Positions 5,605 to 37,861 of a DNA stretch of 64,000 nucleotides are shown in pieces. Made by a program: the position numbers and the translations under genes. Positions within the stretch are counted from its first letter, which is position 1, and each line of letters begins with the position of its first letter. Below the pieces are notes generated by a model. It worked only from the letters and a program-made list of their open reading frames with translations. It was not told where the DNA came from and ran no database searches. Origin of the DNA: an uncultured Clostridium sp. (GTDB taxonomy: Bacteria; Bacillota; Clostridia; TANB77; CAG-508); NCBI GenBank assembly GCA_946639585.1, contig CAMPBS010000004.1, positions 5,765 to 69,764 of the forward strand. The letters run 5' to 3'.

Positions 5605-6246
5605 TCATATTAAAATATCGGAAAAATTAGAAACTGGAATTGCTCCATCTTTGATTAAATTATTTGTACCAACTGAATTTAATGAATTTATATTTCCTGG
5701 AACAGCATAGACTTCTTTTCCTTGTTCCATTGCAAATTCTGCTGTAATTAAAGAACCACTTTTTTCTTTTGCTTCTACTACCAAAACTGCTCTGCTCATT
5801 CCACTAATAATACGATTTCTTGCAGGAAAATGTTCTTTCTCTGGTCTTACTCCTAAAGGATATTCTGAAATAATTACTCCACCTTGTTCTATTATTTTTT
5901 TAGCTAATTGTTCATTTTCTTTGGGATAGATTATATCTAATCCGCTTCCTATTACTGCAATTGTTTTTCCGTTTGCTTGCAAGGCTCCAATATGTGAATA
6001 GCTATCAATTCCTTTTGCTAATCCACTTATAATGTTTATATTTTGTTTTGCAAGATTGTAAGCAAAATATGTTGCTGCTTTTTTTCCATATTCTGTTGCT
6101 TCTCTACAACCAACTATTGCTATGCCTTGATTATTTAAGATTTCAACATTTCCCATTACATACAAGCACTTTGGCGGGTCATAAATTTGTTTTAAAAGTT
6201 CTGGATATTTCTCATTTTCAATTGTAATCCTTTTAATATCGTTCAA
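5605..6246 (-). CDS. dprA: DNA processing protein DprA, short form (Rossmann-like core only)
   Basis: 213 aa with GLAKGIDSYSH and PARNRIISG motifs typical of DprA. No N-terminal SAM or C-terminal winged-helix extension is evident. Confidence 0.8.
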   Translation of the reverse strand: MNDIKRITIENEKYPELLKQIYDPPKCLYVMGNVEILNNQGIAIVGCREATEYGKKAATYFAYNLAKQNINIISGLAKGIDSYSHIGALQANGKTIAVIGSGLDIIYPKENEQLAKKIIEQGGVIISEYPLGVRPEKEHFPARNRIISGMSRAVLVVEAKEKSGSLITAEFAMEQGKEVYAVPGNINSLNSVGTNNLIKDGAIPVSNFSDILI

Positions 6247-6321
6247 ATTATCACACTCCTTTCTTAATTTGCATATTTATAACATGGATTTTTAAATTTG
6301 TAAAGACTTATAATTATAAAA

Positions 6322-6460
6322 AGCAAAATATATTAATTTTAAAACCCGCGTAAGCGACTAACCGGAGCGAAGCGCAGGGCGACTGGAGCAACTTACAGAA
6401 TAGTATTTTAAAAATCTGGAAGTTGCGACACCAAGGGTTTAAAAATTAATATATTTTGCT
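6322..6460 (+). repeat. Palindromic GC-core element, family A, copy 1 (139 bp)
   Basis: 26-nt AT-rich arms AGCAAAATATATTAATTTTAAAACCC / GGGTTTAAAAATTAATATATTTTGCT flank a GC-rich core (GCGTAAGCGAC...AGCGAAGCGCAGGGCGACTGGAGCAA...). A near-identical core occurs in reverse orientation at 11305..11443. Confidence 0.75.
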
Positions 6461-6475
6461 AAATTATTTACAAAT

Positions 6476-7858
6476 TTAAAATTCCATTTTAGAATCTAAC
6501 CAAGCTTTTAAATCAGCAATTGCAATTCTTTCTTGTTCCATTGTATCTCTATCACGAACTGTAACTTGTCCATCTTCTAATGTATCAAAGTCAATTGTTA
6601 CACAATATGGTGTTCCAATTTCGTCTTCTCTTCTATAACGCTTTCCAATAGAACCAGCTTCATCATAGTCACATGGGAAGTATTTTGAAAGTTCTTCATA
6701 CACTTCTTCTGCTTTTTCACTTAGCTTTTTAGAAAGTGGAAGTACTGCAACTTTGAATGGTGCTATTGCTGGATGTAAATGTAATACAACTCTTGAATCT
6801 CCTTCTCCTAAGTCTTGTTCTTCATAACCATTGCATAAAAATGCTAATGCTAATCTATCAACACCTACTGATGGCTCAATTACATAAGGAATGTATCTTT
6901 CATTTGTTTCAACATCTAAGTATGACATATCTGTTTTTGCATGTTCTTGGTGTCTTGTTAAGTCATAGTCTGTTCTATCTGCAATTCCCCATAATTCTCC
7001 CCATCCAAATGGATATAAGAATTCAATATCTGTTGTTGCTTTACTATAGAATACTAATTCTTCTTTTTCATGTTTTCTATATCTTACATTTTCTTTCTTT
7101 AAACCTAAGTTTAATAAGAAGTCTAAGCAATATTTTTCCCAATAATCAAACCATTCCATATCTGTTCCTGGTTTGCAGAAAAATTCATATTCCATTTGTT
7201 CGAATTCTCTTATCCTGAATGTGAAGTTTCCTGGTGTTATTTCATTTCTGAAGGCTTTACCTATTTGTCCCATTCCCATTGGAACTTTTTTTCTTGATGT
7301 TCTCATTACATTTTTGAAGTTTACAAATATTCCTTGGCATGTTTCTGGTCTTAAATATACTGTTGAGCTTGAATCTTCTGTTACTCCTTGGAATGTTTTG
7401 AACATTAAGTTGAATTGTCTTATTCCTGTGAAATCATGTTTTCCACAGTTTGGGCAATTAATTCCATTGTCATCTATATATTTAACTAATGCTTCATTGC
7501 TCATTCCATCTGCACACATGTCTATTCCATTTTCTTGTGCCCAGCTTTCTATTAATTTATCTGCTCTATGTCTTGTTTTACAAGCTTTACAGTCAATTAG
7601 TGGGTCATTAAATGTAGATACGTGTCCTGTAGCTACCCATGTTTCTGGGTTCATTATTATTGCAGCATCTAATCCTACTGAATCTTTTCTTTCTTGGATG
7701 AATTTTTTCATCCATGTTTTTTTTACATTGTTTTTTAATTCTACTCCTAAAGGGCCGTAGTCCCAACTATTTGCTAGTCCTCCATAAATTTCTGAGCCTG
7801 GATATATAAATCCTCTATTTTTACATAAGCTCACAATTTTGTCCATTGATTCTACCAT
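6476..7858 (-). CDS. glyQS: Glycine--tRNA ligase, homodimeric alpha2 type
   Basis: 460 aa and full-length. Class II aaRS motifs, and a T-box leader upstream. Confidence 0.95.
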
Positions 7859-9733: not shown

Positions 9734-10555
9734 TTAGTCATGAATTATTTTTTCTATTATACTAAATAAAATAAATAAAACTAAGTTTACGATTACAATC
9801 ATTGCTCCTGTGCTTATATTGTATATGTAAGATAAGTATATTCCTATTAAGAATGAAATAACACTTATTATTGCTGAGCTTATTATTACTTTTTTGAATG
9901 ATTTGAATATTCTCATTGATGTTAATGCTGGGAAGATGATTATACTACTTATTAGCATAACTCCCATCATTCTCATACCTACAACTATTATTAATGCTGT
10001 TAATACTGCGATTATATTTGTGTATCTATTGGCTTTTAAGCCACTTGCTTTTGCAAAGTTTTCATCAAATGTTACTACAAATAGTTTTCTATAATAGATT
10101 ATAAATAAAACTGCTACTATAATACTAACAATAATACTTAAAATTACATCTGCTTGACTCATAGCAAGTATACTTCCAAACATGAAATTACATACATCTG
10201 TGTTCATCCCTGTTGAAAGTGACGTTGCTGCTACTCCTATTGCTAACGCAGAGCTTGATATTAATGCAATTGCACTATCGCTTTTTATTCTGCTGTTGTT
10301 CCCAATTTTTAACAAGATTATTGCTGATATTGTAACACATGGAATTGCTATGTAAAGCGGTGTTGCGGCTCCAAATGCTGTTGCAACAGTTAAAACTCCA
10401 AATCCAACATGTGATAGTCCATCACCTATCATACTATATCTTTTTAAGACAAGACTAACTCCTAAAAGTGCTGCACATAAACTTATTAAAACTCCTACTA
10501 ATACAGCTCTTTGAATAAATATATGTGACATCATTTCTGCTACATTTTGTATCAT
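9734..10555 (-). CDS. znuB: Zinc/manganese ABC transporter permease (ZnuB/AdcB family)
   Basis: 273 aa polytopic ABC-3 family permease. Overlaps the ATPase gene stop by 1 nt. Confidence 0.85.
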   Translation of the reverse strand: MIQNVAEMMSHIFIQRAVLVGVLISLCAALLGVSLVLKRYSMIGDGLSHVGFGVLTVATAFGAATPLYIAIPCVTISAIILLKIGNNSRIKSDSAIALISSSALAIGVAATSLSTGMNTDVCNFMFGSILAMSQADVILSIIVSIIVAVLFIIYYRKLFVVTFDENFAKASGLKANRYTNIIAVLTALIIVVGMRMMGVMLISSIIIFPALTSMRIFKSFKKVIISSAIISVISFLIGIYLSYIYNISTGAMIVIVNLVLFILFSIIEKIIHD

Positions 10556-11274
10556 TATTCAGCACCTCCATCTTTTTTATCTTCATCATGATGATGGCAA
10601 GGACATTCACAGTGTTCATTATGATATTTTTCTACATTTCCATTATAAGTAACTTCGCCATTTACAATCTCTATAACATTATCAGCATAATTTAAAGCTC
10701 TTTCTATATCATGTGAAACCATTAGCACTGTAATGTTTTCTTCTTTCTTTAATTTATCTAATAATTCATAAATTTGTTTTGCAATACTTGGATCTAATCC
10801 GTTGGTTGGTTCATCTAATACAATTATACTTTTTGTAGCGCATAATGCTCTTGCTATTAGAACTCTTTGTTGTTGTCCACCAGATAAATCTGCAAAACAT
10901 GTTTTTCTTACATCATAAATTCCAAGCTTTTTCATAACGTTTTTGGCATTTTCTTTGTCTTCTTTTTTATAAAAAATACTTCTTACATTATTTGAAATTG
11001 TACCAGAAAGTACTACTTCTTCTATTGTTGCTGGAAAATGTGCTTGTATTTCGCTTTTTTGTGGTAAATATCCAATGTGTTGTTCTTTTATTATTTCTCC
11101 TGAATATCCCTTATTCAAGCCTAATATACATTTTAATAATGTACTTTTTCCTGAACCATTTTCACCAACTATGCATGTAAATTTTCCTTGCTCTACGTTT
11201 ATGTTTATGTTTTTTAATGTATCCTTTTTAGTAGGATAACTGAAACTTAGATTTTTTATTTGAATTAGATCCAT
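10555..11274 (-). CDS. znuC: Zinc ABC transporter ATPase with Cys/His-rich C-terminal tail
   Basis: Walker A GENGSGKST, signature LSGGQQQR, Walker B ILDEP. The tail is HNEHCECPCHHHDEDKK. Confidence 0.9.
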   Translation of the reverse strand: MDLIQIKNLSFSYPTKKDTLKNININVEQGKFTCIVGENGSGKSTLLKCILGLNKGYSGEIIKEQHIGYLPQKSEIQAHFPATIEEVVLSGTISNNVRSIFYKKEDKENAKNVMKKLGIYDVRKTCFADLSGGQQQRVLIARALCATKSIIVLDEPTNGLDPSIAKQIYELLDKLKKEENITVLMVSHDIERALNYADNVIEIVNGEVTYNGNVEKYHNEHCECPCHHHDEDKKDGGAE

Positions 11275-11304: not shown

Positions 11305-11443
11305 AATCTAAATATATAATTTGTAAATCCTTGGTGTCGCAATTTCCATATTTTAAAATACTAGTATGTAAATTGCTCCAGTCGCCCTGCGCTTCGCTAC
11401 GGTTGGTCGCTTACGCGGATTTACAAATTTATATATTTAGATT
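11305..11443 (-). repeat. Palindromic GC-core element, family A, copy 2 (139 bp), inside the zinc operon
   Basis: Arms AATCTAAATATATAATTTGTAAATCC / GGATTTACAAATTTATATATTTAGATT. The core is the reverse complement of copy 1 with a few substitutions. Lies between the znuA stop and the znuC start. Confidence 0.75.
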
Positions 11444-12513
11444 TATTGTAATGCTTGTTTTAGAACTAAAACATTTCGTTCCATCAAAGAAACCCATGTT
11501 TCTCCCTTGTTGAAATCATCTAAAGAAACATTGTGTAAGCTTTGTATTTGCATTGCTTTGCATCCATTTCCTGCTTCATCTGCAATTGTTTTTGCTACTT
11601 TTCCATCATTCATTTCAATATATAAAACTACTGGGATTTTGTCTTGTTTTACTTTGTTTTCTAAATAAGCTATTGTTTTTGCAGATGGATCAGTTTCTGT
11701 GCTACATCCATTAAATGCTGCGCTTACTTCTAATTTATAATAATTTATAAAGTATTGCATTGGCATTTTATCACCAAATATTAATCTATTTCTAACTCTT
11801 TTGTTTACTACTTCTTGTATTCTTTTGTCTACATCTTGTATTTTTGCTATATATTTTTGAGCATTTGCTTGGTATTTTTCTTTGTTTTCACCATCTATTT
11901 GTTCCATTGCTTGTTCTAGTTTGTTTACCATTTTTATTGCATTTGAAGGTGATGTCCAAATATGTTCATCAAAAGCTCCTTCTTCATGTTCGTGATGATG
12001 TTCTTCTTTTTCTTCGTCTTCATGTTCTTCAGCCTCGTGTTCATGTTCCTCTTTTTCTTCTTCGTGTTCGTGTTCTTCTTCACCATGTTCGTGATGATGT
12101 CCTTCCTCTTCCTCAGCTCCATCAACTTCTTGTTCCTCTATTGTATCAACGAAGTTTGCAATACAAATTGTTTCTACATCTTTTTCTTCTTCTAATGAAT
12201 CTAGAACCTTATCTGCCCATTTTTCCATTTCTCCACCAATATATACAAATAAATCTGCATTTTGGATTGTTGTTAAGTCTTTTGCTGTTGGATCATAACT
12301 GTGAGCATCTTTTCCAGGTCCTAATAAGAATGTTAATTCAACATTTTCATTATCTCCTATTATTGCTCTTAGAAAATCATAACTTGCAAAATTACTTGCA
12401 ACAACTTGTTTTTTGCTTGTATCTTTCTTTTTATTATCTCCCATATTAAATAGTGCAAAACCCGCACCTACAACTATTAAAATAGCTAAAATTGTTAATA
12501 TTATTTTTTTCAT
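11443..12513 (-). CDS. znuA: Zinc ABC transporter substrate-binding lipoprotein with His/Glu-rich loop (ZnuA/AdcA family)
   Basis: Signal/TM N-terminus, cluster-9 SBP fold sequence, and a long GHHHEHGEEEHEHEEEKEEHEHEAEEHEDEEKEEHHHEHEE insert. Confidence 0.9.
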   Translation of the reverse strand: MKKIILTILAILIVVGAGFALFNMGDNKKKDTSKKQVVASNFASYDFLRAIIGDNENVELTFLLGPGKDAHSYDPTAKDLTTIQNADLFVYIGGEMEKWADKVLDSLEEEKDVETICIANFVDTIEEQEVDGAEEEEGHHHEHGEEEHEHEEEKEEHEHEAEEHEDEEKEEHHHEHEEGAFDEHIWTSPSNAIKMVNKLEQAMEQIDGENKEKYQANAQKYIAKIQDVDKRIQEVVNKRVRNRLIFGDKMPMQYFINYYKLEVSAAFNGCSTETDPSAKTIAYLENKVKQDKIPVVLYIEMNDGKVAKTIADEAGNGCKAMQIQSLHNVSLDDFNKGETWVSLMERNVLVLKQALQ

Positions 12514-37821: not shown

Positions 37822-37861
37822 ACATAAGATATATTATTTTTGCAAACGCTGTGGGGACCGA
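37822..37861. repeat. Truncated family B element (left arm plus 5' core only)
   Basis: AACATAAGATATATTATTTTTGCAAACGCTGTGGGGACCGA aligns with the left arm and first 18 nt of the core of 54380..54517. Ends 2 nt before the sortase stop codon. Confidence 0.5.

Follow-up and report, generated by a model that had tools for sequence, protein, structure and literature searches.

A small, probably mobile hairpin repeat with a conserved GC-rich core follows genes in low-GC Clostridia from rumen and human gut

A 64-kb stretch of DNA from an uncultured Clostridium sp. (contig CAMPBS010000004.1 of assembly GCA_946639585.1, positions 5,765 to 69,764), referred to below as the window, contains two 139-bp copies of a repeat, here called Family A, in which a structured, GC-rich core is carried between AT-rich inverted arms. 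[quoted passage not shown] It is multicopy, is located just 3′ of genes, is missing from the same sites in a sister species and can fill the slot of an intrinsic terminator. It is a new family of the familiar bacterial hairpin repeats (MITE/ERIC/SPRITE-like) with an unusually well conserved core, and it is distinguished from the known repeats by this structured GC-rich core, which is invariant while the ends vary.

The evidence for mobility comes from sites that are occupied in the window and lack the element elsewhere. In contigs of a sister species, which share 86% nucleotide identity with the window over 10 kb, both sites lack the element; the znuA-znuC spacer is just 14 nt in length, and the spacer between the genes for glycyl-tRNA synthetase (GlyRS) and a DprA-family protein holds a plain terminator (GTGAAAAAC-TTA-GTTTTTCAC-T5). 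The znu site is likewise empty in RGIG8360, whose identity to the window is 85% across 11 kb of synteny. Its GlyRS-DprA slot (L056:9803-9916) is occupied by another repeat, family C, containing motifs (TCTCCCCA ... CGGTCCCCAC) that resemble those of family B (see below), and family C is found exactly in the slot of Family A; different families replace one another at one site. A diverged copy of Family A, oppositely oriented, occupies this slot in GCA_017511085, and three further lineages have ordinary terminators there. The 26-nt arms of copy 1 are also present at a locus without similarity to the window (L026), indicating that the arms travel with the core; they belong to the element and are not pre-existing terminator hairpins, the circumstance that a preliminary description of the window had named as one that would undo its reading. 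The idea that the outer 6-7 bp of these arms are a remnant of the GlyRS terminator was rejected on the same evidence, the arm ends at L026 being identical. Truncated Family A copies also exist.

More than 150 further copies were found in metagenome-assembled genomes (MAGs) of rumen Clostridia and in contigs from rumen, human-gut and other metagenomes. An exact 20-mer of the core has 35 matches in five rumen "Clostridia" MAGs with a GC content of 25-32%, and 8 further matches in GC-rich genomes that were judged to be due to chance. A looser, two-block pattern detects at least 120 metagenome stretches from rumen, human gut and other animals, with ∼100 true copies among the matches listed, and the model designated R1 recovers 107 copies in 94 loci. 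These copies are related to one another, so that counts do not equal independent events, and all derive from short-read assemblies, in which palindromic repeats fare badly. For the window's species, independent public assemblies break within the element (L050, L052, L055 (start), L045 and L054 (start)), and three Logan contigs begin at one identical base in the loop of P2, the first core hairpin; such breaks are a practical sign of the fragmentation of short-read assemblies by the repeat. Subfamilies differ in their arms, in the apical part of the long core hairpin and in an optional 53-nt module (AGCTCGAACGCATACTGCCATTGTAACAGGCAGAGCCTTAACAATGGACAGCA) that follows P2 (L007:166-483, L027:710-1026, L011:2132-2452 and others). 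This module is present or absent at orthologous loci (L023 versus L027; L010 versus L007) and is found in two different subfamilies, so that it may itself be mobile or swapped between copies.

Within the window Family A comprises two copies only, as detected by a covariance model (163 and 159 bits). Both had been placed at 6322-6460 (+) and 11305-11443 (-) in the preliminary description, and re-reading of the sequence gives the same layout, with a core close to the predicted ∼87 nt in each copy:

6322-6347, plus strand: 5′ arm of copy 1, AGCAAAATATATTAATTTTAAAACCC, the partner of 6435-6460.
6348-6434, plus strand: core of copy 1, 87 nt, 48% GC, asymmetric, with a four-way-junction fold.
6348-6355, plus strand: P2 mini-hairpin of copy 1, GCGTAAGC, with a GC stem and a GTAA loop, fitting both the GNRA-tetraloop pattern and the GCGNNAGC motif.
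6362-6378, plus strand: P3 of copy 1, with closing CC/GG pairs, an internal loop rich in purines and a GCGAAGC mini-hairpin at 6367-6373.
6384-6430, plus strand: P4 of copy 1, with T-A and G-C pairs, tandem G·A/A·G, then an 11-bp stem GCAACTTACAG/CTGGAAGTTGC containing the conserved A·G mismatch, and a loop that is AT-rich.
6435-6460, plus strand: 3′ arm of copy 1, GGGTTTAAAAATTAATATATTTTGCT, with TTTTT following the hairpin on the minus (gene-sense) strand.
11305-11443, minus strand: copy 2, sense to the znu operon and opposite to copy 1 in the window.
11443-11417 and 11330-11305, minus strand: arms of copy 2 (the first of 27 nt, with one bulged A), enclosing a core of 86 nt at 11416-11331, with P2 at 11416-11409.
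6277-6309 and 6462-6494, no strand assigned: outer 33-nt inverted repeat bracketing copy 1, 85% complementary, forming the context of the element and lying outside it.

The two copies are 87-88% identical, and a 13-mer of the element, CCGCGTAAGCGAC, occurs exactly twice in the window where 0.03 occurrences would be expected. The core has a GC content of 48%, in comparison to 19% for the arms and 28% for the window as a whole, and each copy folds into a single long hairpin far better than shuffled sequences do (z = -6.3 to -8.2 on either strand). The CGC-GTAA-GCG and GCG-AAG-CGC segments of the preliminary description are both present, as is the inner stem, which reads GCAACTTACAGA/TCTGGAAGTTGC in copy 1, reads GCAATTTACATA/TATGGAAATTGC in copy 2 and has the same A·G mismatch in both. 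Paired changes between the arms of the two copies (C-G to T-A and T-A to G-C) were also as first read.

Copy 1 is located between the GlyRS gene (6476-7858, -) and the DprA-family gene (5605-6246, -). Copy 2 lies in the zinc operon, as had been proposed, between a ZnuA-family gene (11443-12513, -) and the gene for its ABC ATPase (znuC; 10555-11274, -), these four genes having been assigned with Pfam; copy 2 overlaps, at its 5′ end, the stop codon of znuA (11443-11445). All four neighbouring genes are on the minus strand, so that copy 1 is antisense and copy 2 sense to local transcription. The 33-nt inverted repeat around copy 1 consists of the last GlyRS codons and the conserved DprA promoter region (CTTTACAAATTTAAAAATCCATGTTATAA), and since it is also found in relatives without the element, it is older than the insertion and not part of it.

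Comparison of 132 unique cores yields a four-way-junction model composed of P1 (the arm stem), P2 (the mini-hairpin), P3 (a variable hairpin) and P4 (the long hairpin), with P3 and P4 both closed by tandem G·A pairs; the conserved unit of the family, ∼115 nt, consists of the inner arms and the GC-rich core. P1 pairs bordering the core interchange between CCC/GGG, TCC/GGA, TTC/GAA, ACC/GGT, GCC/GGC and others. P2 is a two-pair mini-hairpin that is GCGTAAGC in the window and GCGAAAGC, GCGCAAGC, GCGGTAGC, GCGTAGC or GCGCAGC elsewhere. The stems of P3 vary yet pair (GC/GC, AC/GT, GT/AC, GTGC/GCAC, GCAG/CTGC and GCTTC/GAAGC), and its closure consists of tandem G·A/A·G together with a pair that switches from C-G (100 cores) to U-A (11 cores). 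At the base of P4, the pairs U-A, G-C, G·A and A·G do not vary in 120-121 of the 121 unique cores, and positions 5-7 of the same hairpin covary, being paired in 99% of cases in comparison to 67-76% in shuffles. Paired substitutions are abundant in every copy looked at, in keeping with the preliminary description. In 14 copies of the window type, 90% of cells are paired (77% in shuffles and 32-44% with slid partners) and double changes are found in 20 of the 26 arm pairs. Among 105 distinct copies, pairing reaches 93.2% of cells (shuffles, 70.2%; slid partners, 30-45%), double changes affect 41 of 44 pairs and the covariation score is 0.483 versus 0.123, although this alignment was fitted to the model and its figures therefore lean towards the structure.

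The fold is asymmetric between strands. The GNRA-type loops, the three tandem G·A sets and the purine-rich internal loops of P1 (GAA/AAA in the gut type, GA/AG in subfamily V2) are all on one strand, and the complementary strand would hold pyrimidine mismatches at these positions. In both window copies, folding of the core as single-stranded DNA (ssDNA) favors the sense over the antisense strand by ∼3.5 kcal/mol. Judged from the aligned sequences, the conserved non-Watson-Crick motifs and the covariation of the core hairpins argue for a folded single strand. Mini-hairpin DNAs with the motifs GCGNNAGC and GCGNAGC are exceptionally stable and are found at ssDNA priming sites (PMC13037366); the window contains an instance of each, GCGTAAGC at 6348-6355 and GCGAAGC at 6367-6373, and the variants in other copies stay within the two motifs. 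P2 and P3 fit RNA loops of the GNRA and GNA types as well as they fit DNA mini-hairpins, so that sequence does not decide between an RNA and an ssDNA form. Conservation above that of the coding DNA of the distant clades is clear only for the 5′ half of the core. Three other readings of the core data were discarded: a P5a helix, pairing the GG of AGGGCGAC with the CC of CACCAA, since the GG is missing in the wider family; the notion that the elements are more conserved than host genes, RGIG8360 being 85% identical to the window and the elements 85-92%; and a choice of strand from G·T versus A·C counts, which carry no information, the ratio being 13:9 in the arms and the 7:30 count of P4 being dominated by related copies and by positions in the loop.

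Covariation in the arms must be considered separately. Template switching between the arms of an inverted repeat homogenizes the arms, inverts the spacer and expands the repeat, and it can make "compensatory" changes in a single step (PMC8604942, PMC13100816, PMC8794818). Homogenization, inversion and expansion are all seen in Family A. At orthologous loci (L010/L007, L009/L028 and L024/L025) the core is turned round with respect to its flanks, and in L073/L137 versus L110/L147 identical cores have opposite orientations between flanks that are 98-99.5% identical; flipped pairs make up 5 of 57 same-locus pairs and come from 2 loci. Arm length ranges from ∼25 to more than 80 nt and in the gut type includes whole extra palindromic modules mirrored on both sides. 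Mismatches in the arms are without strand bias (13 G·T and 9 A·C), and one strain variant of the window's own species carries a double change in the arms, from ATTAAT to ATTGAT/ATCAAT. Homogenized arms, inverted cores and expanded repeats thus all being present, the paired arm changes alone do not show selection on a fold; arm covariation need not mean selection, as homogenization of inverted repeats also yields it. The preliminary description had taken covariation of the arms and of the inner stem as a sign of selection on a folded structure. For the arms this step is not secure; better evidence comes from the core (the variable P3 hairpin, the C-G to U-A switch of its closing pair and the invariant tandem G·A pairs), of which that description had made only partial use. 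The retention of mismatches in the P1 internal loops and the covariation of the 2-5-bp P3 stems are harder to produce by template switching, and point to a constraint on the folded core.

The mirrored modules are best seen in the human-gut-type copies L137, L110, L073, L164, L109 and L087, where they extend ∼90 nt to either side of the core. Each module, ATTGCCA-(CCGGTTCCGGGTTTAAA)-TGGCAAT, is itself a small palindrome, one or two such modules extending the hairpin, and the resulting composite hairpins of ∼300 nt resemble BIME mosaics.

For a non-autonomous MITE-like element, these observations may be accommodated in the following way. The folded core would be recognized by machinery acting in trans that copies or moves the element, a role that would account for the near-invariance of the core and the drift of the outer arms. 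After insertion, the arms would behave as any long inverted repeat in replicating DNA, and template switching or arm-to-arm recombination would homogenize and lengthen them, giving rise to apparent covariation and occasionally flipping the core. Where the element is transcribed, the stem (at least 26 bp) could act as a 3′ stem-loop, serving as a terminator, a stabilizer or an RNase III target. Copy 1, which is followed by a T5 tract, would replace the GlyRS terminator. Copy 2, which separates the zinc-binding protein gene from the ATPase and permease genes, would uncouple the expression of the first from that of the ATPase gene. In being short, non-coding, multicopy (>150 copies) and variably present (both window sites being empty in the sister species), Family A agrees with the usual description of MITEs, from which it departs in lacking conserved terminal inverted repeats (TIRs) that are shared with a transposase-encoding parent IS; the inner ∼20 nt of the arms are conserved only within subfamilies and the outer arms vary.

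Several results weigh against mobility of this kind. No transposase, recombinase or reverse transcriptase recurs near the copies among 614 ORFs within 2.5 kb, in a search that covered the fetched flanks of copies, and clustering of ORFs, from 35 loci and then from all 614, gave only housekeeping families as candidates for an associated enzyme (ABC exporter, M23 peptidase, SufS/SufB, IF-2, ClpC, deformylase and AspRS). No parent or full-length element was found, and there is no copy in GenBank phages or PLSDB plasmids or in viral contigs, where the single match falls in coding DNA and is due to chance. Target-site duplications, for which the preliminary description had proposed a check, were not consistently seen at the hairpin feet, where AT-rich flanks and outward-growing palindromes would hide duplications of 2-3 bp. 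No pair of near-identical strains was found in which one Family A site is filled and the other cleanly empty, and in every contig of the window's own species (at least 8) each copy keeps its orientation, suggesting that movement is infrequent. Finally, features well known from RNA, namely conserved GNRA-type loops, tandem G·A pairs and internal loops rich in purines, would also fit a host-selected RNA.

The latter possibility, that Family A is a cis-acting RNA selected by the host, functioning as a terminator or stabilizer in the 3′ untranslated region in the manner of REP/ERIC sequences and spreading only secondarily, appears unlikely but has in its favor the position of the element relative to genes. 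A gene 3′ end adjoins 91 of the 96 copies for which both neighbours could be called, the foot of the hairpin lies a median of 27 nt beyond the upstream stop codon, and the element can occupy the place of a terminator. The 96 copies lie between co-directional (72), convergent (19) and divergent (5) genes, whereas gene pairs in the same loci are 82% tandem, 10% convergent and 9% divergent; the modest enrichment of convergent pairs, 20% versus 10%, is the sole departure from this baseline. An earlier impression that copies are found only between co-directional genes (36 of 38 in the first sample) was abandoned once the tandem baseline had been measured. On the gene strand the copy 1 hairpin is followed by TTTTT, in a slot that holds plain terminators in four related lineages, and copy 2 is located where, in Clostridia, stem-loops following binding-protein genes set the stoichiometry of ABC transporters (PMC9045158). 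A simple terminator scanner found none at the copies, its rule (a short stem, a loop of 3-8 nt and at least three G-C pairs) being unfit for such stems, and a test for T-tracts at the hairpin feet was uninformative, as A/T runs are absorbed into the palindrome. Hairpin function, however, requires no invariant, asymmetric 87-nt core, no T-tract follows copy 2, and the sister species manages with a plain terminator or no hairpin at the two sites. Furthermore, the core is found in either orientation to the genes (26 copies sense, 46 antisense, the copies not being independent), which argues against a function of the core in host mRNA, as half or more of the transcripts would bear the conserved motifs in complementary form.

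A structured non-coding RNA that stands alone, or a self-cleaving ribozyme, encoded in many gene copies and with the arms serving as a processing stalk that releases the core, is a distinctly improbable explanation, although many features of the fold are of the kind expected: P2 loops of the GNRA type (GUAA, GCAA and GAAA), tandem G·A pairs that are invariant in 121 cores, covarying P3 and P4 stems, an optional 53-nt expansion hairpin, a purine-rich P1 internal loop kept despite homogenization of the arms, and the better folding of the core sense strand. Against this, Rfam searches with the window, both copies and seven related loci, of the kind proposed in the preliminary description, gave no match to the element at the gathering score, and even at E ≤ 10 only a snoRNA and, on both strands, generic long-hairpin plant miRNA precursors were returned, all below threshold. 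No conserved promoter is found at the copies, where promoter-like matches are at the level of chance, the flanking genes are unrelated housekeeping genes, and copies are present or absent between sister species and flipped within species. The P2 forms GCGGTAGC, GCGTAGC and GCGCAGC also suit the DNA mini-hairpin rule better than GNRA.

A signal acting as folded ssDNA, either a recombination site resembling attC or IS200/REP hairpins or a priming signal, would in practice be a sub-case of the mobile element favored here and is, as a separate explanation, very improbable. P2 and P3 match both of the stable mini-hairpin motifs (PMC13037366), P2 alternating between exactly these two forms; the conserved mismatches give strand asymmetry, as in attC sites, and the lack of a consistent target duplication would fit insertion by HUH/Y1 enzymes. 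There is, however, no orientation bias of the IS200/IS605 type relative to replication and gene direction, and no Y1/HUH or integrase gene within 2.5 kb of the copies. The R and L boxes of integron attC sites (RYYYAAC...GTTRRRY) are absent from the ends of both copies (AGCAAAAT.../...ATTTTGCT and AATCTAAA.../...TTTAGATT), which have housekeeping genes as neighbours. A programmed invertible switch, in which a site-specific recombinase flips the core and toggles the flanking operon, would fit the reversed, identical cores between near-identical flanks and the differing orientations at three or more orthologous loci between species, but is extremely improbable, since only two loci (5 of 57 same-locus pairs) are flipped, contigs of the window's species agree in orientation, there is neither a recombinase gene nearby nor a promoter in the core, and inversion mediated by inverted repeats explains the flips without a dedicated enzyme.

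Among known repeats, the Correia elements of Neisseria (CREE/NEMIS) are characterized by conserved TIRs, a TA target duplication and internal promoters or IHF sites. Family A shares their size (∼100-200 bp, as had been recognized in the preliminary description), inverted ends of ∼26 bp and dozens of intergenic copies, and both are hairpin elements that are found inverted, Correia elements being co-transcribed into a long hairpin. It differs from them in that its outer arms vary, promoter-like matches occur at chance level, the invariant part is the GC-rich structured core and the hosts belong to a different phylum; nor is there a TA duplication at either copy, the flanks being ...AAAA-element-AAAT... 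for copy 1 and ...ATAA-element-TAAT... for copy 2. The ERIC/IRU and REP/BIME sequences of enterobacteria are, like Family A, imperfect palindromes found in both orientations in transcribed intergenic regions at gene 3′ ends without an internal transposase, and the human-gut-type copies lie within mosaics of palindromic units (TTGCCA-N17-TGGCAA modules) as in BIMEs; the enterobacterial repeats have no sequence relation to Family A, which lacks a conserved GTAG-type REP head (REP/REPIN palindromes are 20-40 nt long, bear such a head at the 5′ end and have a RAYT, or Y1 transposase, gene in the genome, usually with REPs on either side) and forms a multi-hairpin junction rather than a single stem. 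P2 (GCGTAAGC) and P3 (GCGAAGC) are exact instances of the mini-hairpin DNA motifs (the phage G4 origin, ssiA and the N4 promoters), which there are single hairpins in ssDNA replication or transcription signals, whereas Family A is a dispersed chromosomal repeat. The GC clusters of yeast mitochondria are also short, GC-rich, palindromic mobile sequences in AT-rich intergenic DNA, although they belong to a eukaryotic organelle, are much shorter and lack long AT arms, so that the likeness is one of analogy only. Correia elements are reported to undergo inversion and, at their repeats, cleavage by RNase III (PMC10969869). The SPRITE, BOX and RUP repeats of Streptococcus pneumoniae are, like Family A, small Firmicute repeats; SPRITE resembles rho-independent terminators, and the three cluster and insert into one another (PMC10969869). 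Families A, B, C and D have one architecture and swap in one terminator slot, paralleling the pneumococcal clustering, but Family A differs in sequence and hosts, in its far more conserved, asymmetric core and in its much longer arms.

The other small repeats encountered include family B, with copies in the window at 50850-50985 (+) and 54384-54516 (+) and a truncated one at 37823-37861. Its architecture is like that of Family A, with locus-specific, self-complementary outer ends, an AT-rich arm (ATATATTATTTTT) and an inner hairpin, whereas its GC-rich core differs (GAACGCTGTGGGGACCGAC...GCAGTTGGGGGAGAAC) and has no Rfam match at the gathering score. Family D, at L056:17750-17915, is a fourth GC-cored hairpin with arms AGCTTGGAAAATAATTAAG/CTTAATTCTTTTCCAAGCT and adjoins a truncated half of Family A. 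A structured insertion of ∼141 nt containing GTGCGAAATTTGCAAAGCAAATTTCTGTGCA is present in only one of two contigs with surroundings 99.7% identical (L085:2894-3035 versus L081:3314), a difference that, from the alignment, indicates that another small element was recently inserted or excised; in some Family A copies (L043, L001:2179-2502 and L019:1095-1417) the apical extension is a hairpin related to it. At 46323-46398 the window has a hairpin with 34-nt arms (AAACTTTTTGGGACACTCCC... / ...GGGGAGTATCCCAAAAAGTTT, 88% complementary) that may be yet another hairpin family; its GGGACAC motif recurs in L062, in the spacer between AlaRS and HIT. The sole Rfam matches in the window are two neighbouring tRNA genes of 96% identity (47199-47269 and 47293-47363, -). 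Repetitive coding sequence within the ZnuA-family gene (11976-12129, -) accounts for the direct-repeat families D1 and D3 and specifies a stretch rich in His, Glu and Asp, which we take to be the usual metal-binding loop.

Family A, with at least three sister families, represents a widespread, unannotated repeat of uncultured low-GC Clostridia in the rumen and human gut. By replacing terminators and splitting operons such as znuA/znuCB, Family A matters for the annotation of MAGs and for the reading of operons, and repeats of this kind break short-read assemblies, several public contigs stopping inside the core. Family A also provides a clean natural case in which the "covariation" of arms is separable from true structural constraint in a core, and its arms are a useful caution for covariation-based discovery of RNAs. 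A bolder and quite unlikely proposal is that the core would be an active nucleic-acid module of a new class, either a small ribozyme or an attC-like recombination site of folded ssDNA. It would spread by insertion into hairpin loops, those of terminators and of other palindromic repeats, 3′ of genes, and families B, C and D would be sister classes built on the same AT-rich arm chassis. If the core should prove to be such an active RNA or ssDNA module, it would represent a new way for small elements to move.

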